Source: Acidovorax delafieldii
Lineage (GTDB): Bacteria > Pseudomonadota > Gammaproteobacteria > Burkholderiales > Burkholderiaceae_C
Reading direction: 5' to 3'
Length of the DNA stretch: 64,000 nucleotides
NCBI GenBank assembly: GCA_002377855.1
Contig: DFQQ01000017.1
Span: 298-64,297 of the forward strand
Position numbers and translations under genes: made by a program. Below are positions 34,363-52,936 of the stretch, in pieces (the stretch's first letter is position 1; each line of letters starts with the position of its first letter). The notes below the pieces were generated by a model that saw nothing but the letters and a program-made list of their open reading frames with translations, was not told the DNA's origin and made no database searches.

Positions 34363-34438
34363 GCCGGTGTAGCTCAGTCGGTAGAGCAGCTCATTCGTAA
34401 TGAGAAGGTCGGGTGTTCGATTCATCTCTCCGGCACCA
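34363..34438 (+). tRNA. tRNA-Thr (anticodon CGT)
   Basis: A 76-nt cloverleaf folded by hand: acceptor GCCGGTG/CTCCGGC (one T-T mismatch at 6:67), D arm GCTC-AGTCGGTA-GAGC, anticodon loop TTCGTAA, T arm GGGTG-TTCGATT-CATCT, and encoded CCA. Confidence 0.85.
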
Positions 34439-36690: not shown

Positions 36691-37377
36691 TTGAAGAACG
36701 TCGGATTCGACACAGAAGAACAGTTGGTAAAAGCCATTGTGGCGTGCACTCGGCGTGCGCAGCGTCGTGACTATCGAGTCGAGTTGGAGCTAGACGCAGG
36801 TGTGGGCATCGCCGACCTCGTACTTGCAAAGAGAGCTGCAAGGACCACGGGTGCGCTCAGAGCGCTATCAAGCGTCAATCCGCGCCTTGCTGTGCTGCTG
36901 AGCCATGGTGTTGGATCAACGATCAGTACCAGAGCAGCTCTGGCAAGCGCGTTAGGCACATCTGACGGCGGGGCGCAACGCGTTCTTGCTCAGCTGTCCT
37001 CTGCTGGCCTTGCATGTGGGTCTGCTAAGGAGTTTTCTATTTCAACAGTATCTACCCTCCCGTTTGAAAGGGTGATTGCGGTTGAGGCCAAGCTCAGCGA
37101 GTGGAAACGCGTGCTTGTACAGGCATACAGGAATTTGCAGTTTGCGGATGAATCCTGGGTTGTTCTCGATCACGCGTATGTGCGGCCTGCACTAGCCCAG
37201 ATTGGCAGGTTCAAGTCTCTCGGTGTAGGTTTGGCGTCCGTTGACTGCCAAGCTGGACTCTACATCCACTCAGCCGCTGTCTTCGGAGGCCCAATGAGCA
37301 TCGCCAAAAGATGGCAGGCTCAGGCAGTGTTGGCTGCCCGGGTAGTGGCAAAGCGGCCTTTACTAGAACGTTTCTAG
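36691..37377 (+). CDS. hypothetical protein with PD-(D/E)xK-like motifs
   Basis: 228 aa. TTG start 8 nt after AAGAGG. GIADLVL ... VIAVEAKLSEWK resembles D...ExK nuclease-core strands, with a possible helical/wHTH insert between them. No family recognised. Confidence 0.45.
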   Translation: MKNVGFDTEEQLVKAIVACTRRAQRRDYRVELELDAGVGIADLVLAKRAARTTGALRALSSVNPRLAVLLSHGVGSTISTRAALASALGTSDGGAQRVLAQLSSAGLACGSAKEFSISTVSTLPFERVIAVEAKLSEWKRVLVQAYRNLQFADESWVVLDHAYVRPALAQIGRFKSLGVGLASVDCQAGLYIHSAAVFGGPMSIAKRWQAQAVLAARVVAKRPLLERF

Positions 37378-38511
37378 GGCTTCCGCCCATGAGGCAAGGT
37401 GGCCGTTTCTCCCATGTCGTTCAAGCGGAAGGCGAGACTCTAACGCCTGATACATCCGCTGTGCATGAGCTACCCGACGTTTGAGCATTGACCGTCGTTC
37501 ATCCAAGCTCATCGCACGCAACTCGTTAACGTGAGCCTGCATGTTGAGGAAATAGTGCTTGTAAAGCGCAGGTTGGTTAAACGTAGGCTCCACCGCCTGT
37601 GATAGCGCGTTCTCAGCCCACTCAGTGGGGTGATATACCTGTCGCCATATTTCCGGCGCTAGTGTCCGAATGCGTTGGGCATCTTCAAACTGAACCCAGT
37701 TCAAAAGTCCAGCCAGATATATACGCGCTTTGGGCCCTCGTACAGCACCGTCGGATTCAACAAACTTGTCTTCCGAGAAGATGCGCGTGTTCTCAAATGC
37801 GCCCATCGTGATGTTGGGATCACCGATGGCAGAGTAAAGCAGGCCTTCTGTGTTCGTGTAGCCAATCGTCAGTTGTAGTCCGGTCCCCATCACCTCCCTG
37901 AAAAACCGCAAGGTCTCCCTCAAAAAGTCAGCGTCTTGTACCTGTTTGGTGTCTCGCTCAAACTCATACATGAGATAGAGCTCGTCCACTTGGTGGAAAT
38001 GAGTAATCCAATCAAGGAGCATCCTACGCCAGCTGGCATGCCTAATCATGCTTGCCTTGACAGCGAGCGACAGGCATAGCGGTCTGTTGCCAGCAACGGC
38101 AAGAAATGGGTTAACCGAGAACTCCTCTTGCATCTGAAAGTACTCGGGATACATCTCCTTCAGGAAGCGGGTCGGAACTACGATCTTGCGAAAGCCCTGG
38201 TCGATCTGGAAATCCACACAGGCCTGCGCGACTTGGGACGAGTGTTCAGCAAATGTCCCGGTTTGAAAGCCCCCTGATGCCTGCTCAGGAAAAAAAGGAT
38301 AAGACAGCAGCTTTCGCTTGCGGGAATTCGGCAGATAGAACTGAGGGTCGAAAAGCGACGCGGCCCGCGTCGCAGGAGCGAGCTTTTCGATTGTCGGCAG
38401 CGCTTGGTGAAGTGGGCTCAGTACAAGTCCGTCTCCGCACCGCTCGCTAAGAAAAGACTCAATGTTCCAGTTCGCGTTATGTCCGACCTGATGGAGCAGT
38501 CCAAGCGGCAT
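37363..38511 (-). CDS. hypothetical protein (382 aa), downstream partner of the Ser/Thr kinase
   Basis: ATG at 38511, 6 nt after a perfect AGGAGG and 14 nt after the kinase stop. No motif recognised. The alternating hydrophobic-strand/helix pattern (FDPQFYLP, IVVPTRF, LSLAVKA, LYLMYEF, LTIGYTN, ITMGAFEN, RIYLAGL) suggests an alpha/beta fold. Confidence 0.6.
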   Translation of the reverse strand: MPLGLLHQVGHNANWNIESFLSERCGDGLVLSPLHQALPTIEKLAPATRAASLFDPQFYLPNSRKRKLLSYPFFPEQASGGFQTGTFAEHSSQVAQACVDFQIDQGFRKIVVPTRFLKEMYPEYFQMQEEFSVNPFLAVAGNRPLCLSLAVKASMIRHASWRRMLLDWITHFHQVDELYLMYEFERDTKQVQDADFLRETLRFFREVMGTGLQLTIGYTNTEGLLYSAIGDPNITMGAFENTRIFSEDKFVESDGAVRGPKARIYLAGLLNWVQFEDAQRIRTLAPEIWRQVYHPTEWAENALSQAVEPTFNQPALYKHYFLNMQAHVNELRAMSLDERRSMLKRRVAHAQRMYQALESRLPLERHGRNGHLASWAEALETF

Positions 38512-38525
38512 GCCTTTCCTCCTAA

Positions 38526-39530
38526 TTAATGGTTCTGGTTGAGGCCGCAAAGTGCCTCAAGTTGCTCAACAAAAATGTTAGGCGTGCGTTGCCGCTCAAA
38601 TTGCGCCTTCTTCATGGCTCTCTCTACGAAATCGGAGAAGGACTGCGAGACTTGCACGAGTTCAGCTAACGGCTTGGGATCGTGTTTTAGAGTCGCGATC
38701 TGAACATCTAACTGGTCCATGTCGTTATCCCAATGGAATGGATGGATACCCGACGCCAGAAGGTACATCACCACACCAATTGCAAAGAAATCCGTTTTGA
38801 AACAGATGAGCGCGCGTTCGTCCCTAAACTGCTCTGGAGCAGCATAGCCCGGGGTTAGGGGGGCAACGAAGCCGGTTTGCGTAAGTCCTTTGGCGCCTGT
38901 CTCACGGACCACGCCTAGGTCGATGACAACCACCTCCCCGTTTGGCCGAACAAGGATGTTCGGCGGTTTGATGTCGCGGTGCACAAACCGTTGTGGATGA
39001 ACCCACAGTGGCATCAATGCGTTTGCAACTCCCAGGGCGAGCGTAGCGATACGCTTTTCATCGCCGCAGTAATGCTGCCAAATGTCCTCAAGCGGGTTCC
39101 CTTCGATGAATTCTTCGATGGTCACATAGAGCCGCTCCGCAAGCGGCTCGTCGGTTTCCGGATTGGTTTTGAACAAGTTGGCGTACAGAAGCTTCGGAAA
39201 ATTGGCAGGCCTGACCGCTGCCAAGATGTCAACTTCAGCCTGAAGGCGAGCAATAGTGTTGGTGTCTGCACCAGACACCACCTTGACGACGACGTTGCCC
39301 CATGACTCCCAGCCCCATAGGAATGGGCTGTCATCTGGATCGTCAATATCCAAAACCTCAAGACTGGCGACAGCCTCCGCTGCTCTGCGCATATCCTCAG
39401 GAATCAAGGAATCTTGAAATCTCGCCAAGTACACAACACGCTGCCCGGAGGGTGCAAGGGCACGGTCGATGATTAGACTCGGCATGCAAACGCGCAACTC
39501 GTTTCTTAGACGCACTGAATCCGATGGCAA
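38526..39530 (-). CDS. Hanks-type serine/threonine protein kinase (stand-alone, cytoplasmic)
   Basis: Beta3 Lys in VVVKVV, alphaC Glu in LQAEVDIL, catalytic loop HRDIKPPNILV, DLG in place of DFG, and YAAPEQF. The Gly-rich loop is degenerate. The TTG at 39530 follows GGGAGGG; the ATG at 39485 is an alternative start. Confidence 0.85.
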   Translation of the reverse strand: MPSDSVRLRNELRVCMPSLIIDRALAPSGQRVVYLARFQDSLIPEDMRRAAEAVASLEVLDIDDPDDSPFLWGWESWGNVVVKVVSGADTNTIARLQAEVDILAAVRPANFPKLLYANLFKTNPETDEPLAERLYVTIEEFIEGNPLEDIWQHYCGDEKRIATLALGVANALMPLWVHPQRFVHRDIKPPNILVRPNGEVVVIDLGVVRETGAKGLTQTGFVAPLTPGYAAPEQFRDERALICFKTDFFAIGVVMYLLASGIHPFHWDNDMDQLDVQIATLKHDPKPLAELVQVSQSFSDFVERAMKKAQFERQRTPNIFVEQLEALCGLNQNH

Positions 39531-39706: not shown

Positions 39707-40708
39707 TCACAGCAAACTCGGAATCTTCCTCCGCGCGACAGGGCGGATGTACTTGGCCAAGGTCACGTCAGACTTGTGCCCAGTCTGCTCTCGTATCTGC
39801 CACGGCTGCAGTCCCTTCTCCGCTGCGCTTGTGCAATAGCCAGCCCTCAAGCTATGGCCGCTGACTTTCTTCGCGTCCCCGCCAACACGCTCCACAGACG
39901 CCTTCACCACTAGCGCCACGGACTGCGCGGACAAACCCAGCCGTGCAACGCGGTCATGGCGGCTGACGGCACGAAACACAAACCCCTCATTGATCCCCGA
40001 AACTTCCAGCCAACGCGCGAGGGCTTGGACTGGACAACGCTCTCCACTGGCATGCGGGATGAACACCGTACGACCATGGCCTTCTTGATCGGTCTTGCTA
40101 GATGGCAAGAAAATCTCCACCCCATTGGCCAGATAGGTCAGATGCTCCACTTGTACCGACACAAGCTCAGACCTGCGCATGGCTGAAGCAAAGCCAACGA
40201 GCAGCAGTGCACGATCACGCGCTGCTTTGACTGGCTTCTTCTGCTGGTCGATCATGACCAGCGCCGCCAGCAGATCATCTTTGATCATTGGCTGAACTTG
40301 CCGCTGCTTGGTGCCAAGCGTTCGGCGAATGCCTTGCATGACGCGCTTCACCGTCTCACTCCGGGCCGGAGATTCCATAGATTTTTCGAGATGAGCCTTG
40401 TGGATCGCGGTCACCCGTCGCTCCAAGGTCGCTACCGACAATTTTTCCGCGCACCGGGCCAGGTACTCGGCAAGAGCCGCCGGGCTGGCCGGAACACTCC
40501 CGCCACTGGCAAAAAAATGCTTCAAATCAGAGGCATATGCACGCTTCGTAGCCGCTGACTGACTGGCCGCGATGAACAGCTCGGCGGTGGCCGAAAAACC
40601 GCTCAGAACGCCCTCTGGCGGCATTTGCAGTGTGCGGTTGGACGTGGTGGTGGTGCGAGCAGACAAAGCTGCGCCAGCGCCCTCCTGCGGAGTGCGAATT
40701 TTCTTCAT
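39707..40708 (-). CDS. second tyrosine recombinase / site-specific integrase
   Basis: ATG at 40708 (MKKIRTP...). N-terminal SAM-like region TKRAYASDLKHF. Catalytic motifs MRRSEL (Arg), HSLRAGYCTS (H-x-x-R) and LAKYIR (Tyr). Confidence 0.85.
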   Translation of the reverse strand: MKKIRTPQEGAGAALSARTTTTSNRTLQMPPEGVLSGFSATAELFIAASQSAATKRAYASDLKHFFASGGSVPASPAALAEYLARCAEKLSVATLERRVTAIHKAHLEKSMESPARSETVKRVMQGIRRTLGTKQRQVQPMIKDDLLAALVMIDQQKKPVKAARDRALLLVGFASAMRRSELVSVQVEHLTYLANGVEIFLPSSKTDQEGHGRTVFIPHASGERCPVQALARWLEVSGINEGFVFRAVSRHDRVARLGLSAQSVALVVKASVERVGGDAKKVSGHSLRAGYCTSAAEKGLQPWQIREQTGHKSDVTLAKYIRPVARRKIPSLL

Positions 40709-40740
40709 GGTGAGTCCTATGGACGGGTTGGAAAAACAAT

Positions 40741-40770
40741 AAAAAACGGCCCGCAAATGGGGCCGTTTTG
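40741..40770. terminator. bidirectional hairpin terminator between the helicase operon and the recombinase
   Basis: A6 run, then ACGGCCC-gcaaatg-GGGCCGT, then T4. This reads as a stem plus T-run on both strands. Confidence 0.6.
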
Positions 40771-41122: not shown

Positions 41123-43900
41123 TCATTTTCCTTGACACAAAATTTCAACATAACCGATGAGCTCTGCCGAGTAGCTACCATCGCCATTCGCAGTTCCTTT
41201 ATGCTTTAGCTCCCGCTGCAACGTGGGCTCGACGGCGCGCGCGAACATCCCCAACCTCTGCTCTGCCGAAAACTTCGGCAAGGCCACCGGTGCCTGCAAG
41301 TAGCTCTCGCACTTGCGTTCAATGGCAGGCGCGCGCGTACCGTCTTCCTTGACGGCGATGGGCTGCACGACGAGGCGCCGGTCTCCACTCTTGCCGGATG
41401 TCTCAACCATCCAGATGGACAGCAGCACAGGTTCATCGACATCGGCCAGCACCGCCAAACCCACATCTTCGGGCGGCACGCTGCGCCAGCGCCCAAGCTC
41501 CTCCTGCACCAACGGGTGATCCAGACCCATCAGCTCAAGGGAATCGTTGCCGGTGGCCGTCTCGCGGTTCAAGGTGAACCGCGCGCGGCGGGCACCATCG
41601 ACGTTCACCAAGTCATAGGTTTCGTCGTCCACCTTGACTAGCCGCTGCTGCCGATCCGCCACGGCCGCAGACATGAACCGCACCAGGCGATCCAAGCTCG
41701 ACGACACGTCAGAGAAAGGCTTGTAGTCGTCAAGGCTGAATCCTTCGAGGTCTTGGAAGAGTTCAAACACCACCTGCCGCGCCTCGCGTGAGTTGGAAAG
41801 CGCCGCCTCCAGCTCAACTTGCGTCCGCTTCAATTCGGGGTCCGACAACGCCTCCTGATACAGCCGGTCATAGTTCAACCGCTCCGACAGCTGCCCCAGA
41901 ATCTGCGCGCGCAGGTCTTCGGCAACGTTGCCCTGGTCATCGACCTTGCCGACCGTGCGAGCAATCTCGGTCAGCTTTTCATCCAGCAGCATGAAGATGC
42001 GGCCTTCGATGGTGTCTGACAGCACAAGGTTGTAGACCTGCGCGGTGTGGTTCTGCCCGTAACGGTGGATACGACCAATGCGCTGCTCCACATCCATTGG
42101 GTTCCACGGCAGGTCGAAGTTGAACAGGATGCGCGCGAACTGAAGGTTGATACCTTCTCGCCCAGCCGCCGTGCACACCAAGACGCGCGGGCCATCCTTC
42201 TGCCGGAAGCGCCGTTCTGCCGCCACCTTGGCACCATGGTCACCGCCGCGCAGCACCACCACACCCTGGCCTGGGAAGGTCTGGTCAATCTCGCGGGCGA
42301 TCAAGTCCACCGTGCCGAGGTAGGTAGCGAACACCACAATCTTTTCGCTCGGGTCTTGCCGCCACAAGGTGCCCAAGCCATCCAACAGCTTCTGCGCCTT
42401 CGTCTCGCGCTGCTGCGGGAATATCTTGAGCAGGTCTCCTATGCGTAACCGCTCTTCGGGCAAGTGCAGTTCAACGACCGCAGATGCGGCCTCCTCGGCG
42501 TGCGCTGCCGAATACTCGCTGCCATACGGGTCCGACGCCAGCTCAAGCGCCTCCTCGTCCAGCTTCTTGACCAGCCGGTACTTCAGGTCAGCGATGACTC
42601 GGTCCACCTCACTGCGGCCAATCGGATCGCGCGCCAAGCCGAACTCGTCGTGGATCAGCTCTCTGGCTTCGTCTGTCAGCCTCTCCCGGCCTTCAATGTC
42701 CAGGTCTTTGTCACGCAGCAAGGCCTCGTGCAAGGTCAGCATCAGCAGTCGTCGCTTCAACGTGCGCTTGACGGCCGCAAAGCTCGATGCAGCAATCTTC
42801 TGGAAGATCGCCATCAGGAATCCGAGCGCCTGCCCTTTACTGCCCTGGCGCCGCGCCAGGTTGAAACCATCTTCAAGGTACTCGCGCAGCTTTTCGTAGA
42901 ACAGCCGCTCCTCCGCACACATCAGGAAGGATTCGGTGTGAACCCACCGCCGCGCGAACAGCGGTGAGCCATCGGGTTGGCATGCGTCCGCCTTGGTGCG
43001 GCGGAACATCACCGTGTTCAGGCGGTGCCGGTTTTCCAGCATCTCTTCCGGGCTGCCGAACAGCGTCGGGTTGAGCAACTGCGCCAGCATCCAGAACTGG
43101 AAGTGATTACCTTGGTGCGGTGTGGCCGACAACAGCATCAGGTCACGCGAATGGTCCTTCAGCGCCTCGGCCAGCTTGTAGTTCTCGGTCTTGCGTACCT
43201 TGCCGCCGTTGCGGTACGCGGTCAGATGGTGGGCTTCATCGAACACCACCAAGTCCCAACGCGGTGCATCGAGCAGCCGCTTGATACGCGTGGGGCGCTT
43301 CAGGGTGTCAATGCTGGCGATCAGGCGGTCATGCTTGGCAAACGCATTGGTCTTGCGGTCGGTGATATCACCCTCAGAGCCGAACACCTCGAAGTCAAGG
43401 TTGAACACCTCGTTCAATTCGCGGTGCCAGTTGTGCACCAGACCGGCAGGCACAACCATCAAAGCGCGGTTCAGCTCGCCTCGGCTGGCCAGCTCGCGCA
43501 AGATCAGCGCGGTCTCAATGGTCTTGCCTAGGCCCACCTCGTCGGCGATGAGATAGCGCCGGGGAGATGCGGTGGCAATCCGGTGAGTCAACACCACCTG
43601 ATGCGGCAGCAGGTCGATCTTGGCGGAGGTCAGCGCCGATGCGCTCTCCATGACCGGCAGCGCATGCGCCTCGTAGGACAGCCATGCCTTGCGCGCGCGA
43701 TCCTCGCCGCCATCGACGGCACGCAAGATGCGCTCGGTGCGTGACAGCTGGCGGCGCACCGCCGCGACAGGAACGCGGCGCTCGCCGATGCTGAAGAACG
43801 CCCGCAGGTATCCGTCACGGGCGGGGTCGAGAACGACGCCAGAGCCAAACTCGTGATGGCTGATCCGCTCGCCGGGTTGAAACTGAAGCTCCTTATCCAC
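41123..43900 (-). CDS. SNF2-family (COG0553-type) helicase
   Basis: 925 aa with a GTG start. Motif I DEVGLGKT, motif II DEAHHL, SATP, and motif VI QRIGRIHRYGQ. Last gene of the six-gene operon. Confidence 0.9.
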   Translation of the reverse strand: MDKELQFQPGERISHHEFGSGVVLDPARDGYLRAFFSIGERRVPVAAVRRQLSRTERILRAVDGGEDRARKAWLSYEAHALPVMESASALTSAKIDLLPHQVVLTHRIATASPRRYLIADEVGLGKTIETALILRELASRGELNRALMVVPAGLVHNWHRELNEVFNLDFEVFGSEGDITDRKTNAFAKHDRLIASIDTLKRPTRIKRLLDAPRWDLVVFDEAHHLTAYRNGGKVRKTENYKLAEALKDHSRDLMLLSATPHQGNHFQFWMLAQLLNPTLFGSPEEMLENRHRLNTVMFRRTKADACQPDGSPLFARRWVHTESFLMCAEERLFYEKLREYLEDGFNLARRQGSKGQALGFLMAIFQKIAASSFAAVKRTLKRRLLMLTLHEALLRDKDLDIEGRERLTDEARELIHDEFGLARDPIGRSEVDRVIADLKYRLVKKLDEEALELASDPYGSEYSAAHAEEAASAVVELHLPEERLRIGDLLKIFPQQRETKAQKLLDGLGTLWRQDPSEKIVVFATYLGTVDLIAREIDQTFPGQGVVVLRGGDHGAKVAAERRFRQKDGPRVLVCTAAGREGINLQFARILFNFDLPWNPMDVEQRIGRIHRYGQNHTAQVYNLVLSDTIEGRIFMLLDEKLTEIARTVGKVDDQGNVAEDLRAQILGQLSERLNYDRLYQEALSDPELKRTQVELEAALSNSREARQVVFELFQDLEGFSLDDYKPFSDVSSSLDRLVRFMSAAVADRQQRLVKVDDETYDLVNVDGARRARFTLNRETATGNDSLELMGLDHPLVQEELGRWRSVPPEDVGLAVLADVDEPVLLSIWMVETSGKSGDRRLVVQPIAVKEDGTRAPAIERKCESYLQAPVALPKFSAEQRLGMFARAVEPTLQRELKHKGTANGDGSYSAELIGYVEILCQGK

Positions 43901-43909
43901 GCGCAGACC

Positions 43910-44410
43910 TCATGTGATCCGCAGGTGGAAAAGACCCGCAGCCTTGGCCCCTTCGCGCAGCAAGATTTCTTGCGGGTACTCGTTGGCCTCGCCCCAAAGG
44001 ATGCGGCCGAAGGCCAACAGGCTTTCACTGTGGGGCGCAGCACAGCGCCACTCGATGGAATCAGTAGCCGGGTTGAGCTTAATGCGGCCTTGACCTGCTG
44101 GCAGCCAGAAAATCAGCGCCGCCTCGCCCTCGTAATAGGCTTGGAATGAGAGGATGGCGTCCTTGATGGCATCGCCCAACCAGGCTTCCGCATCTTCCGG
44201 CGTCAGCAGATCAAGACTGGCCTCCAGCCCAGCCACCACCACCGTGTTGTTGCCATTGCTCGGCAGGTCGTCAGGCCAATTGCCAACCGCCTGCAAAAAC
44301 TGCCGCAGGCTCCAGACTTGCCCAGCCTCGCAAACTTGGTTGCGGGCCTCTTCGTCCCACACCCAACTAGTGCCCCGCCGTTGCCAGACGGTATCGAGGG
44401 TTTGCTTCAT
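43910..44410 (-). CDS. small conserved-position ORF (166 aa) between methyltransferase and helicase
   Basis: The ATG at 44410 forms an ATGA overlap with the methyltransferase stop. It occupies the slot that I recall a DUF3780-type small protein filling in DUF499/DUF1156/helicase loci; this is unverified. Confidence 0.55.
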   Translation of the reverse strand: MKQTLDTVWQRRGTSWVWDEEARNQVCEAGQVWSLRQFLQAVGNWPDDLPSNGNNTVVVAGLEASLDLLTPEDAEAWLGDAIKDAILSFQAYYEGEAALIFWLPAGQGRIKLNPATDSIEWRCAAPHSESLLAFGRILWGEANEYPQEILLREGAKAAGLFHLRIT

Positions 44411-47400
44411 ACCTCGTACTCCTCGAACAGCGAAGTCTGTTGCGGCATGGCCGTCTGCGTCGCAGCCCAAGCGTTGTAGATGGACACCGCACGCGAGGCC
44501 GCATTGCGATTTTCCTGATCGGGACCGTGCCGATGCAGCCACTCCAGCAAGGGCTTCAAGGCCACGTGCGGCTTGAAGTTTTCGTTCTTCAGCGTGTCAG
44601 CCGCATTGATGCCACTGCCGTCGAAGCAGGCACCAACCAGCACCAGTGCCTGATCCAGATCGGAGGTCAGCCGACGCTTGTGCTTGCCAGACCACTCACG
44701 AGCGAAGTCCAGCGGCTTCACGCGCGTGAAAACCTTGCTCTTCTCAGAACACCATCCGCGCTGCTCGAATTCATCGGGCGTCGTGATGGAACCCTTCAGG
44801 AACTTCTGCAGCTGGTCGCGCTTCATCTCTGTGGCACTGCCGAAGGTACGAAGAAACTGGCGCGTGATCGGCTCGGCGTTGACCGGCGGCGGCTCCTTAC
44901 CCTTGTCAGCATCCTCGTCGATGAGCTGATTGATACCGATCAACGCCTCCTTGACGGAGATCGTGCGTCCTTCGTCAACGTAGACCTTGCCGTAGTGCCG
45001 AGAGAAGTACTCCAACGCCTTGCCGCGCCGGATCACCTGAATGTCCGCCGCTGGCAGACCTTCCTTCGCATGGTTTTCGAGCATGGCCTGTAGCTGGCGC
45101 ACATCAGCCATTACCTCACGGCGCATGCGACCCCAGCTAACCGGCTTGGGCTCCTCTGTGCGCTTGCGACAGACGTGGATGACGTCGTACTCGATTTTTT
45201 GCGCACCGAATTCAGCGTTGTCACCTTTAGTTTCGTCAGATCGAATTGGGTAAGTCGCTTCTAGGTAGTAGCCCGCATCGAACAGGGACTCAAGCACGGC
45301 CACCCACGGCTCATCCTCACTATGGTGAAAGGTGAAGGCGAGGATGCCGCTTGGCTTCAAAAGGCGATGCGCCTCGCGCCAGCATTGCGTTAACAGCCTT
45401 TGATAGAAACCGTTTGAGTCTTCTGGCTCGCGAAAGCTGTTAGCAACGGCTTCCAGCGACTTTGGGGTGTATTCCGCCTCGAAAATGTCAGGGTACTTGC
45501 CTTTAAGTGCCAGACGCAGCCAGACATAAAAAAAGTCGGCAAGCTCGGAATATTGCAAAAGGTCGCCGAACGGCGGATCAGTGATGACTAAGTCTAGGCT
45601 TGCTGTTTCAAGCTCGTGAAGATCGGTAGATGAGCCTTGACGAACATCCACATTCAATACTGGATCGCCCGGCTTGACCTTCTCACTTTTCCCACTCATC
45701 CTTTCAGCCAGAGCTGGGTCTTGGCGGCTAAGACTTTCTACGCTGACAACTTCCCAAGGATCAATTGCCCATTCTCGACCTTCGAGAACTCCCTCTGAGC
45801 TGGACGCCCAGTTACCACGACCCAGGTCAGGGAATACGCAATTCTCAACCACCGTTAACTTCGGGTGGTAGTTACTGTTCGAGAACATCGGCTCTGGCGT
45901 GTCTCGCTGTGGATTCCAAAAACTAAACAAGCACTGGTTGCGCAAATATTGCTGAAAAGCACCTAGAACGTACTCGCGCGTGGCCCAGTCATAGTCTCCT
46001 ATATTGACGATTGCCTTAAGCAACTGCGCATGCACCAAAAGCTGGCGGGCGCTAAACATGTCAGACCATTTCTTGTAGCCATGACCGTTGGCTATCAAAT
46101 CCTTAACCACGGCACGCAGGCTTGGTGGAATGTCTGATTGTGGCCAATAGTCTTTGAGATCGGCCTCCTTACGTACTTCCCATTCAGCTAGGGCTGCGTC
46201 GTACTGCTTGGCATGCGTGATATCGAACGCCGCGAAGAAGCGGCCACTATAGGGCTTTCCTGACGTATCGCGCTTTGGAGCGTAGCCCTGAACCGCATAG
46301 GCGCCAAAAGGCGCAGTTTTTTCTGTTGGTCGCAATGCTGAGATGATGTCCTGAGTGGTACCGCATTGCGCACAAGTAAATTTTCCATTGCCAGCCTTGT
46401 TGGCGCGATCTGTCGGAAAGGTGGTTTTCGTTTCAGGGCACGTCACTTCTTCCGGCAATTTGCCGCGCACTTCCAGCAATCGAATTTTCGACGCGCGCTC
46501 ATGATCCCAGCGCGCTGTCGTCGCAACATCATCCTGCGCCGACCCACCATATGGCTGGTTATTTGAATCCTGCTTGGGCGAACCGACCAGCCACTGTGGA
46601 TGCACCAGAAGGCTCAACTCGACCTTCTTGTTCGCACCTTTGCCGAGTTTGATTTGGCCCCGGTCACCAACAATAACCAATCCATCTTTAGGGTGGGTAT
46701 GGGCGGCGGCGTTATGTGTGCAGTGCGGACAGGTTACGCCCTGCGCAGGATCAAGTACCGCATAGGGCTGTTCCGAGGACACAACAAACAAAGGCACATC
46801 GGGCGCCATACGCGCGGCCTCAGCTTCAATATGAAATTTAGCACCACAGTTGCCGCAGGAGTGTTCCCAGTGCTTGACAGTGATTGTCTTCACGGCGATT
46901 ACTGGACTGCTCATGATCGGTGTACGGTGGCCGCAGCCCGTCACTTGACACGGGCCATGCTTAGCCCAGAAGGTGTAGATGACTTCCGGACCTTCGTAGC
47001 GGTATTCCTTCCTCTGCTCACGCGGGATGGTCAGCGGATCGAAGTCCGCAGGCATCACCTTTTTTGTCAGGAGATGTGTCCACGTGCCCTTTTCCCCTTC
47101 TGGACCGTCGCAGTAGTAATACGGCATGATCTGAGGCTTGACCTCCGCCTCGATGTCAGCGAGCAGGCGCTTCACCTCGTCCAGATCAACATTCGCCAGC
47201 TCTTGTTTGACCACGAACCACGCAACCGGGTTCAGATCATTGCCGACCATCTGCATCCCAAGGCGTGAGCCTTCCACCAGCGTAGTGCCACCGCCCATGA
47301 AGATGTCGGCCACCTTCAGATGCTTGAAAGCACCCTTTTTCTGGTGGTTGGCGTAATAGTTGTCCCACACCAGCTTGGCGGCGTGCGACTTGTCTTCCGG

Positions 47401-47664
47401 CGCCTTAGTCGCAGCAGCAATCAGCATCGAGCGGAAGACGCTGGAGCGGCGCCGCGCCCACCACTTGGACATTTGGTAGATCGGCTTTCCCGCGTTACCC
47501 TCAATGATTGCCACCTGATTGACAGGCAGGATCGGGAAATCCACTTCCAAACAAGTCTTGGGGCGATCAGGATCGTTGAAGTCAACGGTTTCAAGCGCGA
47601 CAGCCTTGCCGGCACCAACAGCCTTTGCGACTTCCTGGGCGAGTAGTTCTTTTTTGGTGGCCAT
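44407..47664 (-). CDS. DUF1156-type (COG1743-like) split adenine-specific DNA methyltransferase with Zn-ribbon inserts
   Basis: 1085 aa. N-terminal MSKWWARRRS, AdoMet motif FMGGGTTLVEG, then about 560 aa later motif IV ITDPPFGD followed by YSELADFFYVWLR. CxxC pairs (CGNC, CPHC, CAQC) lie in the insert. Confidence 0.85.
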   Translation of the reverse strand: MATKKELLAQEVAKAVGAGKAVALETVDFNDPDRPKTCLEVDFPILPVNQVAIIEGNAGKPIYQMSKWWARRRSSVFRSMLIAAATKAPEDKSHAAKLVWDNYYANHQKKGAFKHLKVADIFMGGGTTLVEGSRLGMQMVGNDLNPVAWFVVKQELANVDLDEVKRLLADIEAEVKPQIMPYYYCDGPEGEKGTWTHLLTKKVMPADFDPLTIPREQRKEYRYEGPEVIYTFWAKHGPCQVTGCGHRTPIMSSPVIAVKTITVKHWEHSCGNCGAKFHIEAEAARMAPDVPLFVVSSEQPYAVLDPAQGVTCPHCTHNAAAHTHPKDGLVIVGDRGQIKLGKGANKKVELSLLVHPQWLVGSPKQDSNNQPYGGSAQDDVATTARWDHERASKIRLLEVRGKLPEEVTCPETKTTFPTDRANKAGNGKFTCAQCGTTQDIISALRPTEKTAPFGAYAVQGYAPKRDTSGKPYSGRFFAAFDITHAKQYDAALAEWEVRKEADLKDYWPQSDIPPSLRAVVKDLIANGHGYKKWSDMFSARQLLVHAQLLKAIVNIGDYDWATREYVLGAFQQYLRNQCLFSFWNPQRDTPEPMFSNSNYHPKLTVVENCVFPDLGRGNWASSSEGVLEGREWAIDPWEVVSVESLSRQDPALAERMSGKSEKVKPGDPVLNVDVRQGSSTDLHELETASLDLVITDPPFGDLLQYSELADFFYVWLRLALKGKYPDIFEAEYTPKSLEAVANSFREPEDSNGFYQRLLTQCWREAHRLLKPSGILAFTFHHSEDEPWVAVLESLFDAGYYLEATYPIRSDETKGDNAEFGAQKIEYDVIHVCRKRTEEPKPVSWGRMRREVMADVRQLQAMLENHAKEGLPAADIQVIRRGKALEYFSRHYGKVYVDEGRTISVKEALIGINQLIDEDADKGKEPPPVNAEPITRQFLRTFGSATEMKRDQLQKFLKGSITTPDEFEQRGWCSEKSKVFTRVKPLDFAREWSGKHKRRLTSDLDQALVLVGACFDGSGINAADTLKNENFKPHVALKPLLEWLHRHGPDQENRNAASRAVSIYNAWAATQTAMPQQTSLFEEYEV

Positions 47665-47668
47665 CTTA

Positions 47669-48589
47669 TTATTTGCGTGTCGTCAACATCATCTCAACTC
47701 CGTAGAGCCTGCGTAACACCCTAGCTAAGCCTCTCAATTTGTGCATCAGCGGGTTTGCAAGCGCAGCATCCGACTTGCTTAGGCTTGCCTGGAAGTAAGC
47801 ATAGACACGGGCGTACTGATCGTCAGAATCTTGATTCCCAACGATACTCCTGAGCATGCTTTCGATGTACGCGTCAATATTTTCATTTGTCTTGCTGCTT
47901 GAAGAAAAAAGCTCCTCAACTTGGCCCTGTATGAGCCGCAGCAAATCGACAGACTCCGCCTTCACAGGATCGCTATGCAAGCTAACTTCATGAAACGAAT
48001 TGAAGTAGAACTTATGATCTTCCGGTGGATCCGATACGTCCATTTTCGGAGGGATACAAATGAGGCCCTCAAAATATGGAACTGAAGGGTAATCAAGGAG
48101 TAGCCCGTGCCGGAAAGTCAGGCGAGAATTTACCCACGCTTGGTCATATAAGGGGTCACCGCCGGACCTCAATCGCTTTGAATCAATAAAAGTCGGTGCG
48201 ACATAGAACACCTTCTCACCAGAATTTTGAAGGTCAACCATGAAGCTATGCTGCGATTTAGGTGCCTTCGCGGACTTCGCTCGAAGCGCAAAGTGAAACA
48301 ATCCGGCATCATCATCAAACGCCCATCCTTTGCGACGCATATAAGCTGCAGGTTGAGAAGACCAAGGGCGCCCAGTGAAGTCGGGATATTTGTATTGGAA
48401 ATACAAGGGTACCGCTTGCACTACGGCTGCATCCCAACCACGAGTAGCCTCCGCTCCAGGAGAAATAGGAACGATCTCTACTTTCCTATCAGGCCCTGTT
48501 AGCTGCCGAAAGATAGAAACAATGTAGTCATGAATGGATTGTTCGATGACAGGGGCATCGGACGGGGATGTCCACGGAGCCTTCACCAT
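47669..48589 (-). CDS. hypothetical protein with PD-(D/E)xK-like signature (306 aa)
   Basis: The ATG at 48589 overlaps the upstream stop by 7 nt. GWDAAVVQAVPLYFQYKYPD has a D-x12-Q-x-K pattern. Visibly more AT-rich than the flanking genes. The longer ORF to 48937 overlaps the PglZ-like gene and was rejected. Confidence 0.6.
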   Translation of the reverse strand: MVKAPWTSPSDAPVIEQSIHDYIVSIFRQLTGPDRKVEIVPISPGAEATRGWDAAVVQAVPLYFQYKYPDFTGRPWSSQPAAYMRRKGWAFDDDAGLFHFALRAKSAKAPKSQHSFMVDLQNSGEKVFYVAPTFIDSKRLRSGGDPLYDQAWVNSRLTFRHGLLLDYPSVPYFEGLICIPPKMDVSDPPEDHKFYFNSFHEVSLHSDPVKAESVDLLRLIQGQVEELFSSSSKTNENIDAYIESMLRSIVGNQDSDDQYARVYAYFQASLSKSDAALANPLMHKLRGLARVLRRLYGVEMMLTTRK

Positions 48590-49599
48590 TTCACTCCCCC
48601 TGCTACCGGGTAAGAAATTTCGACAAAGGGTGACAGCACCTCCAGCAGCGAAAGGCCGCCATGGGTCAGCGTTGGGTAGCCTCCCTGGCTCTTCCACTTC
48701 CTGCGCCCCAACGCCAGCAAATGTGCGCCATGCGGGCTGTCCAATTGCAGAGCCACGGGCGGCACAAACGGGCCTGCCTCGCCAGTGCCCACGACGCTGC
48801 GGCCGCTTGAAAAGGTCTTCTTGAGGTGCTGGCCAACATCGCCTTCGGCGTCGGGGAAGTAGCCCGTGGCAGCGTAGCCATGGTCGGACGTGATGACCAG
48901 ACGGCGACCGGTTGCGAGGCGCTCGACGAAAGACCAAAAGTCATCGCTGGTGAGCTGATCGGCGGCATCCTTGGTCAGCGTATCCAGACCTTGACCGGCG
49001 ACTGCTGCATCGTGAATCTTGCTGTCTGGCCAGTGGTGCCAGAACACCCAATTGGGCGCACCGTTGACCAATCCTTCGCAGTCCTTCCACGGCATGTCCA
49101 GGCTTTCGGTCTGCGCGGGCTGAAGACGATGCGCGAGGCCACCACCATTGTTCTGAAGCTGGCTGCGGCGGCCAAACCCAAGGGCGCGAGCAAACTCGTT
49201 GGTCTCGCCAGGGATTTCCGAGGCGTTGGCCGAGACTTCGTGCAAATTGAACCCGCGCTCTTTGGCACCTTGCAACAGCCAGGGCAATTCGCGCAGTGAC
49301 AGGCCGTCCAGAATCAGCACGGCTTTGGCGCTGTACGGCTCCGCCCACCAGCGCGCGAGACGGTCCGAAGTGCGCTCAACGGAATCGCCGAAGCTGCTCC
49401 ACAAGTCCCAGCCGCTGGCAGACAGGAAATTGTCCAAGGCGCCGATCTCTCGGTCGCGTTTGATGACTTCGCTCGGGGCGTTGCCAACGGCCAAGGGCTT
49501 GGAGGCAATCTCCGTGGCGCTCTTGACGATGACGCTCCAGGCATCAGCAGCGGAACCCTTGGTCAGTTCCTTCAGGATTTCAGGATGGAGGGCCATCAC
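48583..49599 (-). CDS. short PglZ-like / alkaline-phosphatase-superfamily protein (338 aa)
   Basis: VLILDGLSLRE (metal Asp), IPGETNEF (candidate Thr nucleophile), ITSDHGY and THGGLSLLEVLSPF match the PglZ/AP core. The start (GTG 49599 or ATG 49596) overlaps the upstream TGA. Confidence 0.7.
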   Translation of the reverse strand: MMALHPEILKELTKGSAADAWSVIVKSATEIASKPLAVGNAPSEVIKRDREIGALDNFLSASGWDLWSSFGDSVERTSDRLARWWAEPYSAKAVLILDGLSLRELPWLLQGAKERGFNLHEVSANASEIPGETNEFARALGFGRRSQLQNNGGGLAHRLQPAQTESLDMPWKDCEGLVNGAPNWVFWHHWPDSKIHDAAVAGQGLDTLTKDAADQLTSDDFWSFVERLATGRRLVITSDHGYAATGYFPDAEGDVGQHLKKTFSSGRSVVGTGEAGPFVPPVALQLDSPHGAHLLALGRRKWKSQGGYPTLTHGGLSLLEVLSPFVEISYPVAGGVKW

Positions 49600-52349
49600 T
49601 TGTCCTCCTTCTCAAGGTTCAGCTCGAACGTCATGCCATCGGGCAGCTTCTTCAGCAGTTCCTTGAGCTGGGCGCCAGTAGCGGCAGACACCTTGATGGA
49701 AACCTCGGCAACCTGCGTCGCCGGGCCGATGCCCCAGCCTTCCAGCTTTCCAATCAGATTCAGCGGAGAGGTGGGCGGGGTGTGCAGCGGAATGCGCGGG
49801 GTGCCGCTGGCTGCGGAACCACCGAAGATGCCACCGCCAGTACTGGCCGGAGGCACAGACTGTCCGCCCGGTGTCGGCTCGTTCACCCCAGGAGGTGCGA
49901 GAGGATTGGTGCCACCACCGAACAGGCCCCCGCCAGTATTTGGCGTGCCGGGGGTGCCAGTGGGTGCTGTCGGCGTGGTGCCGCCGGTGGCAGGCACCGC
50001 AGAGGGTTCAAGCAGGAAGACTTCGTCGAGCTGACGACCGGTATACGAGAGTTTGGGACGCAAGCGCCGCCATGCGGTGTCTTCATCCTCACCGGGATTG
50101 GTTTGCAGCCATTCCATTTGGCGCAGGTTGATGACGATCTTTCCGCGCGCGCACAGGCGAAGGATGCGTTCCTTCATCGAGGTTTCGCCGAGCCAAGGAA
50201 TGCAGTCCTGGCCCGCAGGCCGAGGCTCCTGCAACTCACGCAGCAGCTTGCCCACCGCCGAGTTCTCGGAGGCGGCTTCGAGCACCAAATCCTCAAAGTC
50301 CTCGGGTACGAAAAGATCGTTGGTCAACGCCTCTTCGATGCCTTCGGGAATCTGCGCGCCTTGCTTCTTCAGGCTTTCCACGCTAAAGCGGCATTGAGCG
50401 GGGTCAGCGAAATTCCATCGCTGCACCACAGCGAACCGGTCGAACCGCTTCTTGAGGATGTCGCGCAGGGCACCCTGGTATTCGGTGTGCAGCTTCTTGT
50501 ACTCGGGGCCTTGATTGCTCCATTCCTGCGCCTTCATTTCGGCACGCGCGAGGATCAGCAGGTCTCGGTCTTGGAAAGCGTTGGTCGAGCCCGCACGCGG
50601 CAACAGGAAGCGGATGGTGTTGCGGCGCTTTTGCAGATGATCTTTGAGCCAGCGGCCCAGGCGTGCGTCGATGTTGTCCGGCTCTTCTGGCAGCACCAGG
50701 ATGGGCAAGCGGTCGTCCCAGCGTTCCGGCTGTTCAGACTCATCCAAGGTGGACCAAGGGTCCGTCTGCCATGACTTGGGCAAAGCAATGACGCGGAAGG
50801 TCTTCGCCACCTCGTCGGTGCCACCAATCACATAGCGAATCTGCTTGGCCAGTTGTGCCTGGTCGGAGCCATCAGCAAAGAGCTTGTCATTGCGAGCACA
50901 GGCCATCAGCTTGGCGCGCGGGTTCTCCTCCTCGCGGAACACAAGCCGGTTGCCGTCCTGATGGATGTTGAAGCTGTTCTCAACAATCGTCGCCAGCTCC
51001 ACATTGAAGGCGTTGTCATCGACGGCCGTGCTGCGCGTGATGTCAACTTGCAAGGTCTGCGGCTCCGCACCGGCAAGGTTACCGACAGCGATGGAGCGCA
51101 GCCACAAGGCACCCACGATCTCTTGCAAGTGGGGTGCCAAAGTTGCGTGCTCGCTGACCGCCTCGGTCACCGAGATGATGTTCTGCTGCGCCTTGGCCCG
51201 CAGCGTGCGGTGATGCTCGTTGGACACCGAGTCCAGCAGCGCGCCAATGCCCGACGCGTCGTCATCCAGACGGAAGTCAGCGGCTGTGAGCACCGGCGCG
51301 GCCTCGCCACGGCTCTTGTAGAGGTTCGCAAGGATGCGAATCATGTCGCGCGTTTCCTGCGCGTCCGTGGCGATGAGCACTTGCTCTTCCAGCAGGCGAA
51401 GCAGGTGCGGTGCGTAGGGCCATGATTCGGTGAATTCCTGGCGCTTGCGTTCCTGCTCGGCGGACGGCACGTCCAGCAGCCGGAAATACTCGGCCACATG
51501 CTTGCCGACCAAGGCTTCGATGCTGGCCGGTGCAATCTGAAGGCGGTTGTCGAAGAGGCGGTGCAGCAGCATGCGGCGCCGGTCTTGCTGAATGCGTTCA
51601 GCGTTTCCGCCTGCCTTGAAGTCGATGGCCACCGGGTTGACGCGGTGCACCTGTTGGTAGGCGTCGCTGCCGCCGTTGCGCACCGAGATCACCAGCACCA
51701 ACAGGTCCGGGCGCTCCTTGGCAATCTCCGACAGGATTTGGATGAAGTTGAAGGCCCAGTTCTTCCACGGGTACTGCTTGGTGTTCGTCAGGCCGTCGAA
51801 CCATGTCTGGAACTCGTCCAACAGCAGCATCGTGGGGGTGTGTTCAAGCAGTTCGAGAATCAGCTTGTCAGACGGGATGTCGGTCTTCGCCGCACCCATG
51901 CCCTCCCACTTGCCCTTGATGTATGTGCCGTGGGGGTGCCGCTCCAGCAACAAGTCCCAAAGAAACTTGTACCGCTGACGATGCAGGCTCTCACCAATCA
52001 CCTGCATGCCGCTGCGAAGGCCGATCTTGGCGATCTGCGGATCACCCAATGTCGTGGACCAGGAATTCAGCCAAGCACCCGTCGAGGCGGCATCGTTGAC
52101 CGCGTGATACAGCGCGGCCATCAAGTGAGACTTACCAAGCCCACGCTCACCGATCACCACGACCGGGCGCCCTTGGTCCGGGCCTACAGCCTCGATGCCC
52201 TTCAGCAGGTCATGCGTGGGGTAGGTAATCTCTAGGAACGACTGCGCGGCGATCTGTGTCGCGCCGGTGTTGGTGTCGTTCGACAGTTCAATTGCGGTTC
52301 CCTTGAGACGCTTGCCCCGAAATTCCTCGCGTAGCGTTAATCCCAGCAT
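49596..52349 (-). CDS. DUF499-type P-loop ATPase (BrxC/PglY-like)
   Basis: 917 aa. FLEITYPT, Walker A GERGLGKSH and Walker B LLLDEF. A 77-aa Gly/Pro/Thr low-complexity linker precedes a 55-aa C-terminal domain. First gene of the operon, with RBS GGGAGAG. Confidence 0.8.
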   Translation of the reverse strand: MLGLTLREEFRGKRLKGTAIELSNDTNTGATQIAAQSFLEITYPTHDLLKGIEAVGPDQGRPVVVIGERGLGKSHLMAALYHAVNDAASTGAWLNSWSTTLGDPQIAKIGLRSGMQVIGESLHRQRYKFLWDLLLERHPHGTYIKGKWEGMGAAKTDIPSDKLILELLEHTPTMLLLDEFQTWFDGLTNTKQYPWKNWAFNFIQILSEIAKERPDLLVLVISVRNGGSDAYQQVHRVNPVAIDFKAGGNAERIQQDRRRMLLHRLFDNRLQIAPASIEALVGKHVAEYFRLLDVPSAEQERKRQEFTESWPYAPHLLRLLEEQVLIATDAQETRDMIRILANLYKSRGEAAPVLTAADFRLDDDASGIGALLDSVSNEHHRTLRAKAQQNIISVTEAVSEHATLAPHLQEIVGALWLRSIAVGNLAGAEPQTLQVDITRSTAVDDNAFNVELATIVENSFNIHQDGNRLVFREEENPRAKLMACARNDKLFADGSDQAQLAKQIRYVIGGTDEVAKTFRVIALPKSWQTDPWSTLDESEQPERWDDRLPILVLPEEPDNIDARLGRWLKDHLQKRRNTIRFLLPRAGSTNAFQDRDLLILARAEMKAQEWSNQGPEYKKLHTEYQGALRDILKKRFDRFAVVQRWNFADPAQCRFSVESLKKQGAQIPEGIEEALTNDLFVPEDFEDLVLEAASENSAVGKLLRELQEPRPAGQDCIPWLGETSMKERILRLCARGKIVINLRQMEWLQTNPGEDEDTAWRRLRPKLSYTGRQLDEVFLLEPSAVPATGGTTPTAPTGTPGTPNTGGGLFGGGTNPLAPPGVNEPTPGGQSVPPASTGGGIFGGSAASGTPRIPLHTPPTSPLNLIGKLEGWGIGPATQVAEVSIKVSAATGAQLKELLKKLPDGMTFELNLEKEDK

Positions 52350-52936
52350 TACTTAGCTCTCCCGTTCTGATCATGGCGTTGCTAAATGTATATCGCCTCA
52401 AAACGGTCAGCAGCGACATCTCGGCTGCAGCAAGAAGTAGAGCTCCATTTTCGGAGCATCTTTCGAGAGCTGTGGGCGTTCTTTCGCAAGCCAGTCCGGC
52501 ACGCACCGTTGGTGCTAGATAAATTCACAGCTATGCAAACTTCTCACACATTTCAATGACAACACCAAATTTGTCGGATCACTACCTTCAAGTGATTGCG
52601 GATTCTCAACAGACTGCACCACTTATCTATTTATACGAATAATGGTATATAATAACATAAATTAATTACTTTTGTGTATTATTTTGGCTTTTTTTATGCC
52701 ATTGCGATGCGTTCCGGCGACTGTTTTCGATTTGGCTTGCTGAGCGGCTACACAACAGCATCTGAACGGAGTGATCAGCCGAATTTAGATCACCTCGCTG
52801 CGCCAGCTTTTGCCATGCAATAGCACCTTTTCACCCGGCTTGAGCGGCGCCGTGAGCCCGCTTTGGGTTATCAAAAACCTGACTTGCGGAACCCGCCGAA
52901 TGGGCCAACTGGTGTGCTTTCACCCTGGAGCAACCC

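Follow-up and report, generated by a model that had tools for sequence, protein, structure and literature searches.

The operon at 41123-52349 of a 64,000-nt stretch of Acidovorax delafieldii DNA (contig DFQQ01000017.1, hereafter called the window) raises the question of how two neighbouring genes in its centre came to lie there and what they do. One of them codes for a phosphatase-like protein of 338 aa (PglZ), the other for a protein of 306 aa (X306), and both belong to a row of six co-directional, closely packed open reading frames (ORFs) on the minus strand. The initial annotation took the two genes for a grafted phosphatase-nuclease effector cassette inside a modification system resembling BREX (bacteriophage exclusion). 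The comparison with related operons gives a different answer: only the 306-aa gene was acquired horizontally, as a passenger in a fixed cargo slot between PglZ and the following methyltransferase gene, and PglZ is a core subunit of the receiving system. The latter is, as judged from its genes and their order, a Type-3 BREX-Related (BR) defence system.

The 306-aa gene as cargo between PglZ and the methyltransferase

Both ORFs and their 7-nt overlap were present as initially annotated (Table 1). In blastn comparisons with the closest operons, those of Hydrogenophaga (locus L001) and Ramlibacter (L002 and L003), homology at 94-96% identity spans the ATPase and PglZ genes, is lost at 48619-48629 and is regained at 47664-47667, where the methyltransferase begins. 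These breakpoints delimit an insert of approximately 0.95 kb, which coincides with the block of low GC content. The insert replaces the approximately 20-nt junction between PglZ and the methyltransferase together with the last PglZ codons, about ten of which (48583-48618) come from the insert, so that the consensus C-terminus "...SPFVELTK" of PglZ reads "...SPFVEISYPVAGGVKW" in the window. The lower GC content noted earlier was reproduced, including the value estimated for 47881-47940 (0.450), and it belongs to X306 alone (GC 0.490, 0.505 at third codon positions), compared to 0.614 for the ATPase, 0.618 for PglZ and 0.615 for the helicase gene; X306 falls within the lowest 2.3% of 921-nt windows by GC. 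Since homology to insert-free operons runs through PglZ, the proposed two-gene insert is reduced to a single gene. The X306 ATG is located at 48589, so that the two genes overlap as far as position 48583, where the PglZ stop ends; an alternative GTG at 48586, with a better spacing from the Shine-Dalgarno sequence GGGGGAG, would shorten the overlap to 4 nt.

A genome scan with the PglZ of the window yielded 80 related loci (L001 to L080) from many phyla, in which PglZ is 73-97% identical; 74 of them contain both PglZ and the methyltransferase. According to tblastn with the six window proteins against the 80 loci, the order ATPase, PglZ, methyltransferase, small ORF and helicase is retained wherever the contig is long enough. 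The ATPase is 75-99% identical in 79 of the 80 loci, in each case as the gene immediately preceding PglZ, and the small ORF (44-99%) and the helicase (78-100%) are conserved as well. PglZ is therefore part of the core and not of the insert. Among Beta-, Alpha- and Gammaproteobacteria and metagenome-assembled genomes labelled as Akkermansiaceae, Acidobacteria, Pirellulales/Gemmatales, Solidesulfovibrio and Synechococcus, the core proteins share 73-99% identity, which implies either very recent horizontal transfer or some contamination of bins.

The junction between PglZ and the methyltransferase is empty in 38 of the 74 loci, with the methyltransferase ATG directly after the PglZ stop (by approximately 19 nt in 35 of the 38). 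The filled junctions carry known defence systems as well as uncharacterised genes: SIR2 and HerA (12 loci; PADLOC matches of 3e-86 and 1e-225), IetA and IetS (12 loci; 4e-145 and 0), Ppl (three loci; 6e-137), a 253-aa protein (three loci, two of which have a second ORF of a MazF-like family, the L033 member of which matches PemK_toxin at 4e-12), an X306-family gene as sole cargo (three loci; close relatives in L046 and L063, a distant one in L056) or a single small gene devoid of family matches (three loci). A further distant X306-family gene is located behind the SIR2-HerA pair of L076, which was tallied with the SIR2-HerA loci, so that the X306 family is found in 4 of the 74 loci in total. 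Cargo is always encoded on the operon strand. It begins at or over the PglZ stop and ends between a 1-nt overlap with and approximately 20 nt from the methyltransferase ATG (e.g. TGAATG, TAATG or TGATG). Operons with near-identical cores differ in this position, with SIR2-HerA in L001, IetAS in L003, no cargo in L002 and X306 in the window, and cargo has thus been exchanged. The exchange probably proceeds by homologous recombination in the highly conserved ends of the flanking genes. X306 accordingly sits in a fixed cargo slot, the approximately 20-nt junction from the PglZ stop to the methyltransferase ATG, which exchanges whole defence systems between nearly identical operons and offers a clean natural setting in which to study the assembly of layered immunity.

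Slot cargos lacking any Pfam or PADLOC match comprise the 253-aa family (three loci) and proteins of 158 and 197 aa (L033, L049, L053, L020 and L047 are the loci in this set); the slot of L061 holds a 132-aa ORF as a further "guilt by embedding" candidate. Two more junctions of the operon take up genes. Between the small ORF and the helicase, 10 of 67 loci (L006, L028, L039, L041, L045, L053, L059, L067, L072 and L071) contain additional DNA: in L006 the genes of a predicted 356-aa P-loop ATPase and of a 241-aa protein that resembles DUF4276 by eye, and in L071 an insertion with a 507-aa ORF that looks transposase-like by eye. The junction between the methyltransferase and the small ORF is used in L002, L016, L042, L049, L050 and L061 and holds a conserved uncharacterised protein of approximately 192 aa; in L061, ORFs of 111 and 131 aa are found there, by eye similar to a nucleotidyltransferase/HEPN pair. 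The slot can serve as a mining ground for candidates such as these 253-, 158-, 197- and 192-aa proteins. For Hma systems, 62.7% were reported to carry embedded genes, 22.8% of which are known defences, and seven of nine embedded candidates conferred phage protection when tested (bioRxiv 10.1101/2024.01.29.577857). Auxiliary nucleases within BREX and BR loci have been catalogued (PMC12839542).

Operon type and the minimal PglZ

DUF499-centred BR systems were defined by Rakesh & Krishnan (Nucleic Acids Res 2026, PMC12839542). Type 3 combines a DUF499 ATPase, an N6-methyltransferase and an Snf2 helicase without nuclease fusion; it is distinguished by an active PglZ that stands alone, present in each of 569 taxa, and by an inactive STAND protein (iSTAND), present in 82% of them (PMC12839542). 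The operon of the window corresponds to this published type gene for gene (Table 1), with a DUF499 ATPase, a DUF1156-type N6-methyltransferase, a nuclease-free Snf2 helicase and a standalone PglZ with its metal residues, and is assigned to it from the predicted proteins, the iSTAND by position. The BREX-like character recognised initially is thus in agreement with a known type.

Table 1. Genes and inserted segment of the operon in the window (positions count from the first nucleotide of the window)
Feature	Position	Strand	Remarks
DUF499-type AAA+ ATPase (BrxC-like), 917 aa	49596-52349	-	first core gene; Pfam DUF499 28.9 bits (cutoff 23), AAA_16
Standalone PglZ (alkaline-phosphatase superfamily), 337-338 aa	48583-49599	-	core gene
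X306, 306 aa, family without catalogue entry	47669-48589	-	inserted passenger gene
Inserted cargo segment, ~0.95 kb, GC 0.49	47665-48618	-	from blastn breakpoints, junction sequences and GC
N6-adenine methyltransferase, 1085 aa, weak N-terminal DUF1156 match	44407-47664	-	core gene
Small core ORF, ~166 aa (165-166 aa by gene callers)	43910-44407; longest ORF reaches 44542	-	iSTAND position
Swi2/Snf2 helicase, 925 aa	41123-43900	-	last core gene; Pfam SNF2-rel_dom, Helicase_C, ResIII

The methyltransferase matches Pfam N6_N4_Mtase (32.8 bits, cutoff 26.7), PADLOC HmaB (3e-39) and PglXI (3e-21) and NCBIfam DUF1156_antiphage (9e-24), while its Pfam DUF1156 match (16.7 bits) lies under the cutoff of 24. 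For the helicase, PADLOC BrxHI|BrxHII (3.5e-103) and HmaA (1.4e-91) were found, and no nuclease fusion was recognised in the Pfam, PADLOC and NCBIfam scans of the 925-aa protein, as judged by missing matches. The small ORF has no Pfam match; located where Type-3 BR systems have the iSTAND, it is a putative iSTAND by analogy with the published layout (PMC12839542). The HmaC and DUF1156 models match weakly, which is probably the reason why Hma-based searches miss the Type-3 BR subtype. Family scans of the six operon proteins gave no match to the BrxA, BrxB, BrxF, BrxL or PglX models, and the only matches of classical BREX type were PglXI, BrxH and a C-terminal BREX_PglZ_3 fragment. With the defining components and a PF08665-type multidomain PglZ lacking from the predicted proteins, the operon does not appear to be a classical BREX system of types 1-6.

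Further features of the operon were recorded. Residues ~765-860 of the ATPase form a long Gly/Pro/Thr-rich low-complexity linker followed by a small C-terminal domain. This domain possibly corresponds to the RRM-like sensor domain that DUF499 ATPases were reported to carry as a variable C-terminus (PMC12839542). The centre of the methyltransferase gene (~45400-46800), by comparison with the published architecture presumably the target-recognition region, has a GC content of 0.51-0.54 and is not aligned with the operons of L001, L002 and L005, which are otherwise 90-95% identical; this suggests that the target-recognition region may be swapped independently of the remaining gene. Promoter and terminator scans of the operon gave counts at or under chance. 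A promoter-like site (47668-47697, minus strand; TTGAGA-18 nt-AATAAT, 10 of 12 matches) is located at the X306 3' end just upstream of the methyltransferase ATG, in a region where such sites are no more common than by chance. Directly before the ATPase, a small HTH_17 gene is found in L081 (6040-6276), L105 (238-519) and L107 (1482-1736). The window has no equivalent ORF at 52350-52900, where the GC content is ~0.46; homology to the relatives stops just upstream of the ATPase start.

The PglZ ORF comprises 338 aa from a GTG, while homologues and gene calls prefer the ATG at 49596, resulting in 337 aa. The motifs listed in the initial annotation are present as LILDG (D98), PGET (T133), SDHG (D239 and H240) and THGG (H313), and all five residues are invariant in 68 PglZ homologues. 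More than 2659 homologues were found; the 120 matches listed are 80-97% identical, and one bears the UniRef name "PglZ domain-containing". PglZ proteins are 329-338 aa long and contain no extra domains. The 338-aa protein is not detected by Pfam PF08665, and NCBIfam BREX_PglZ_3 covers only its C-terminal 35 residues (E 1e-3). The AlphaFold2 (AF2) model has a mean pLDDT (predicted local distance difference test) of 65 and a pTM (predicted template modelling score) of 0.75, with four low-confidence stretches. In a Foldseek search of the PDB the top 14 matches were all PorX, a response regulator with a PglZ domain (probability 0.97-1.00, E 1e-5 to 3e-4), followed by ENPP phosphodiesterases and the Acinetobacter BREX PglZ 9zn5_B (E 0.09); the TM-scores of just 0.33-0.40 are due to 104 residues with a pLDDT below 50. 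A hidden Markov model (HMM) search of PDB sequences with the PglZ profile (A2) retrieved spurious matches only. The model and the invariant residues support the earlier prediction of a minimal PglZ of the alkaline-phosphatase type, in agreement with the published description. As both the operon type and the minimal PglZ have already been described, their assignment adds little; of use beyond it are X306 and the cargo slot.

Distribution and putative function of the X306 family

A word-index search retrieved 36 X306 homologues of 39-99% identity, and an exhaustive search 203 cluster representatives (E<=1e-3), nearly all of approximately 300 aa. Close relatives are embedded in the slot in six lineages: the window with 99% identical copies (L107 to L109), L105 and L106 (70%), L046, L063, L081 (Stenotrophomonas) and L088 (Luteimonas). 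In approximately ten further separate contexts, no BR gene was found within reach of the X306 homologue; these include a Comamonas conjugative element, where the gene lies beside integrases and an ABC ATPase, a Pseudomonas locus with neighbouring TIR-domain proteins and an integrase-bounded island with an FRG-domain gene. The initial annotation had recommended searching for PglZ and X306 as a two-gene module elsewhere; in such islands and mobile elements, X306 homologues occur on their own, PglZ being missing from the neighbourhood. When ordered by identity, embedded and free copies are intermingled (70% embedded, 62% free, 50-53% both kinds), which speaks for an autonomous gene that was captured repeatedly. 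A metagenome scan added ten X306 loci, five of them of close relatives and none beside BR genes, while tblastn against PLSDB plasmids and GenBank phages and a scan of IMG/VR gave no match.

X306 produced only noise against Pfam, NCBIfam and PADLOC (PADLOC-DB v2.0.0 including the HEC and PDC models). The same holds for 37 close and 114 distant relatives, save one LmuA match (4e-5) in a single member. Neither an accession of an X306 homologue nor the term "DUF4365" was found in the supplements of PMC12839542, the text of which is possibly incomplete. X306 is encoded on the operon strand between core genes, occupies a slot that carries known defences in relatives and has independent homologues. 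It is a new member, uncatalogued in PADLOC v2, Pfam and NCBIfam, of the known class of genes embedded in defence operons, and by analogy with this class a plausible single-gene defence candidate. As such it would be cheaply testable and has apparently been missed by current catalogues.

The D...QxK pattern GWDAAVVQAVPLYFQYK, which had pointed to a nuclease of the PD-(D/E)xK type, is present and covers residues 51-67 of X306. The N-terminal part of the protein contains E16, E47, D53 and Q65-x-K67; it is followed by a beta-rich middle with the conserved residues H192, Y/F194, H205 and S206 and by a variable helical C-terminus. In 114 relatives of approximately 20% identity, the residues of the putative core are nearly without exception retained (E16 112/112, E47 113/114, D53 113/114, Q65 113/114, K67 114/114), as was to be checked for D, Q/E and K according to the initial annotation. 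The family consensus "E...GYD.......PFY.QFK.S" resembles DUF4365 (PF14280), a PD-(D/E)xK family. In an hhalign comparison of the X306 profile (A3) with a PF14280 alignment built from phage LE1 gp38 and 36 relatives (37 proteins), E16, D53 and Q65-K67 fall on E9, D39 and Q67-K69. In TmuRE, the DUF4365 nuclease of SPARDA, inactivation was achieved by mutating Q62 and K64 (PMC10810196). Among BFVD matches of the X306 model (AF2; pLDDT 76.7, pTM 0.79), the best by TM-score is the same phage DUF4365 protein, LE1 gp38 (TMt 0.41; E 0.76). One X306 homologue carries the UniProt name DUF4365, which was used as a lead only. Taken together, an N-terminal domain of the PD-(D/E)xK type is moderately probable. 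A function of X306 as regulator, specificity factor or anti-defence gene was considered and set aside, given no DNA-binding or regulator family in the scans, the position in the middle of the operon and the invariant polar residues of catalytic type.

The reading to which we give cautious preference is a Type-3 BR operon with X306 as a self-sufficient embedded defence module bearing a PD-(D/E)xK-type nuclease. Cargo would be co-transcribed with the operon, as inferred from the tight joins between cargo genes and their neighbours, and X306 would, as a one-gene module for defence or abortive infection, contribute a second layer of immunity. The N-terminal domain of X306 would be a metal-dependent PD-(D/E)xK nuclease with a D...QxK motif (DUF4365/Mrr-like) formed by E16, E47, D53, Q65 and K67. 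Sensing or regulation might be the task of the conserved beta-rich middle, with H192, Y/F194, H205 and S206, and of the helices at the variable C-terminus.

Several results weigh against this reading. The near-invariant residues R86 (113/113), Q113 (113/114), H114 (112/114), Y129 (114/114), H192 (112/114) and H205 (112/114) are not explained by a plain PD-(D/E)xK core. The in-register hhalign alignment has a probability of just 0.6%, and no PF14280 match was obtained in the scans of approximately 150 X306-family members (37 and 114; E<=1-10). The structural model is weakest (pLDDT 35-77) over residues 1-60, and D53 lies in a short helix instead of at a strand start. Foldseek returned nothing significant for X306 in the PDB (best E 0.15, TM approximately 0.1) or BFVD (E 0.76), even though published SPARDA complex structures, indicated by a paper search, probably place DUF4365-type domains in the PDB; HMM searches of PDB sequences with the X306 profiles (A1 and A3) gave spurious matches only. 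The nuclease prediction of the initial annotation therefore holds for the conservation of D...QxK, as a nuclease core needs it, and not for a nuclease fold in PDB or BFVD. Moreover, six independent embeddings with start/stop overlaps could mean a functional dependence on the BR machinery, and the role of the X306 family in phage defence is putative, by analogy with embedded genes.

Such a dependence is the content of one rival explanation, in which X306 is not autonomous but wired into the BR-3 complex as an auxiliary or backup effector, e.g. degrading DNA nicked or marked by PglZ or firing upon inhibition of the complex. Repeated capture into one slot with seamless coupling in six lineages would fit this explanation, as would the BR-3 helicases without the nuclease fusions of BR-1 and BR-2 and the layered model with auxiliary PD-(D/E)xK nucleases inside BREX and BR loci (PMC12839542). 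However, the slot also accepts complete, independently active systems (SIR2-HerA, IetAS and Ppl), so that position does not imply wiring; most contexts of the X306 clade are without BR genes, and an X306-family gene is found in only approximately 5% of the BR-3 loci. We consider a wired effector rather improbable.

Doubtful to a similar degree is a reading that retains X306 as embedded cargo without making it a PD-(D/E)xK nuclease, with D...QxK as part of another, possibly new, fold of a hydrolase, a nucleotide-modifying enzyme or a sensor. The lack of significant structural neighbours in PDB and BFVD in spite of the pTM of the model, and of profile matches that would connect X306 with a family in Pfam, PADLOC or NCBIfam, would be expected under this explanation, as would the invariant polar residues outside the putative core, with S206 in addition to those listed above. 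On the other hand, order and spacing of the helix with its Glu, the strand, G-x-D and P-x-x-x-Q-x-K-x-S mirror DUF4365, with three motif elements in register, and QxK is a validated catalytic motif of that family.

A bolder extension, unlikely at present, would make the X306 family (approximately 200 clusters at 50% identity, ~300 aa) an anti-phage system of a new kind that consists of one gene and unites, in a composite active site, a DUF4365-like E/E/D/QxK core with R86, Q113-H114, Y129, H192 and H205-S206; the repeated seamless capture beside PglZ could then reflect synergy, e.g. an attack on DNA nicked or marked by PglZ. If true, X306 would represent a new enzyme family or act together with PglZ.

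That PglZ and X306 form an obligate pair, grafted jointly into a modification operon as one phosphatase-nuclease effector cassette, is very improbable: the 4-7-nt overlap of the two genes in the window and L105 to L109 and the proposed role of PglZ as primary nuclease effector of BREX and BR-3 (PMC12839542) would suit such a pair, yet PglZ is conserved in all 80 loci and abuts the methyltransferase directly in 38 of 74, homology with insert-free relatives covers the entire PglZ gene with low GC in X306 only, X306 homologues occur without PglZ in approximately ten contexts, the two genes do not overlap in L046 and L063, and the slot holds SIR2-HerA, IetAS and Ppl as well.

Genomic surroundings and comparison with known systems

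A tRNA-Thr(CGT) gene (34363-34438, plus strand) is directly followed by a tyrosine integrase gene (34600-35733, plus strand; Phage_integrase 3.9e-28), and the BR-3 operon hence appears to belong to a genomic island that has tRNA-Thr as its integration site. Two genes on the minus strand lie closely downstream of the helicase, one for a protein resembling Ser/Thr protein kinases (38526-39530; Pkinase 5.9e-24) and the other for a second tyrosine recombinase (39707-40756). Two uncharacterised ORFs are found at 36691-38550.

In comparison with published Type-3 BR systems (PMC12839542), the operon shares the DUF499 ATPase, the DUF1156-type N6-methyltransferase, the nuclease-free Snf2 helicase, the standalone PglZ, in which the metal and nucleophile residues are intact, and the small ORF at the iSTAND position. 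The copy in the window differs by the embedded X306 and the altered C-terminal tail of PglZ, while the core is not essentially different. Hma (PADLOC) and the DUF499/DUF1156/DUF3780/PLD-helicase system (PADLOC/NCBIfam; BR type 2) are sister types of Type-3 BR. The initial annotation had regarded the operon as a candidate for a BREX-like system with an explicit restriction arm; BREX-like it is, but standalone PglZ and embedded auxiliary nucleases (PMC12839542) as well as defence genes embedded in Hma systems (bioRxiv 10.1101/2024.01.29.577857) had already been published.

The 338-aa protein has its best structural neighbours in PorX and BREX PglZ, with which it shares the Asp, Thr, Asp-His and His motifs. 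The "phosphatase null" entries of PorX are Thr mutants, consistent with a Thr nucleophile. Unlike these proteins, it is approximately half the size of BREX PglZ and has neither the receiver domain of PorX nor the extra domains of BREX PglZ.

Similarity of X306 to DUF4365 (PF14280) nucleases, an example of which is the effector domain of SPARDA short-Argonaute systems (DREN/TmuRE), extends to the N-terminal helix Glu, G-x-D and P-x-x-F-Q-x-K-x-S, and the QxK motif has nearly the same distance from the N-terminus in X306 (Q65/K67), TmuRE (Q62/K64) and phage LE1 gp38 (Q67/K69). X306 exceeds DUF4365 proteins in length by approximately 130 residues, possesses a helical tail and a conserved beta domain rich in His, and has no APAZ/Argonaute partner and no significant profile or structure match to the family. 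With the genes embedded in Hma and other defence operons under the "guilt by embedding" concept (Payne et al. 2024, bioRxiv 10.1101/2024.01.29.577857), X306 has in common the same strand, the nesting in the core, known defences at its position in relatives and free homologues; it differs from them in matching no HEC or PDC model of PADLOC-DB v2.0.0 and in using a single precise junction with start/stop overlaps. A related case is BrxU/GmrSD, embedded in type I BREX.

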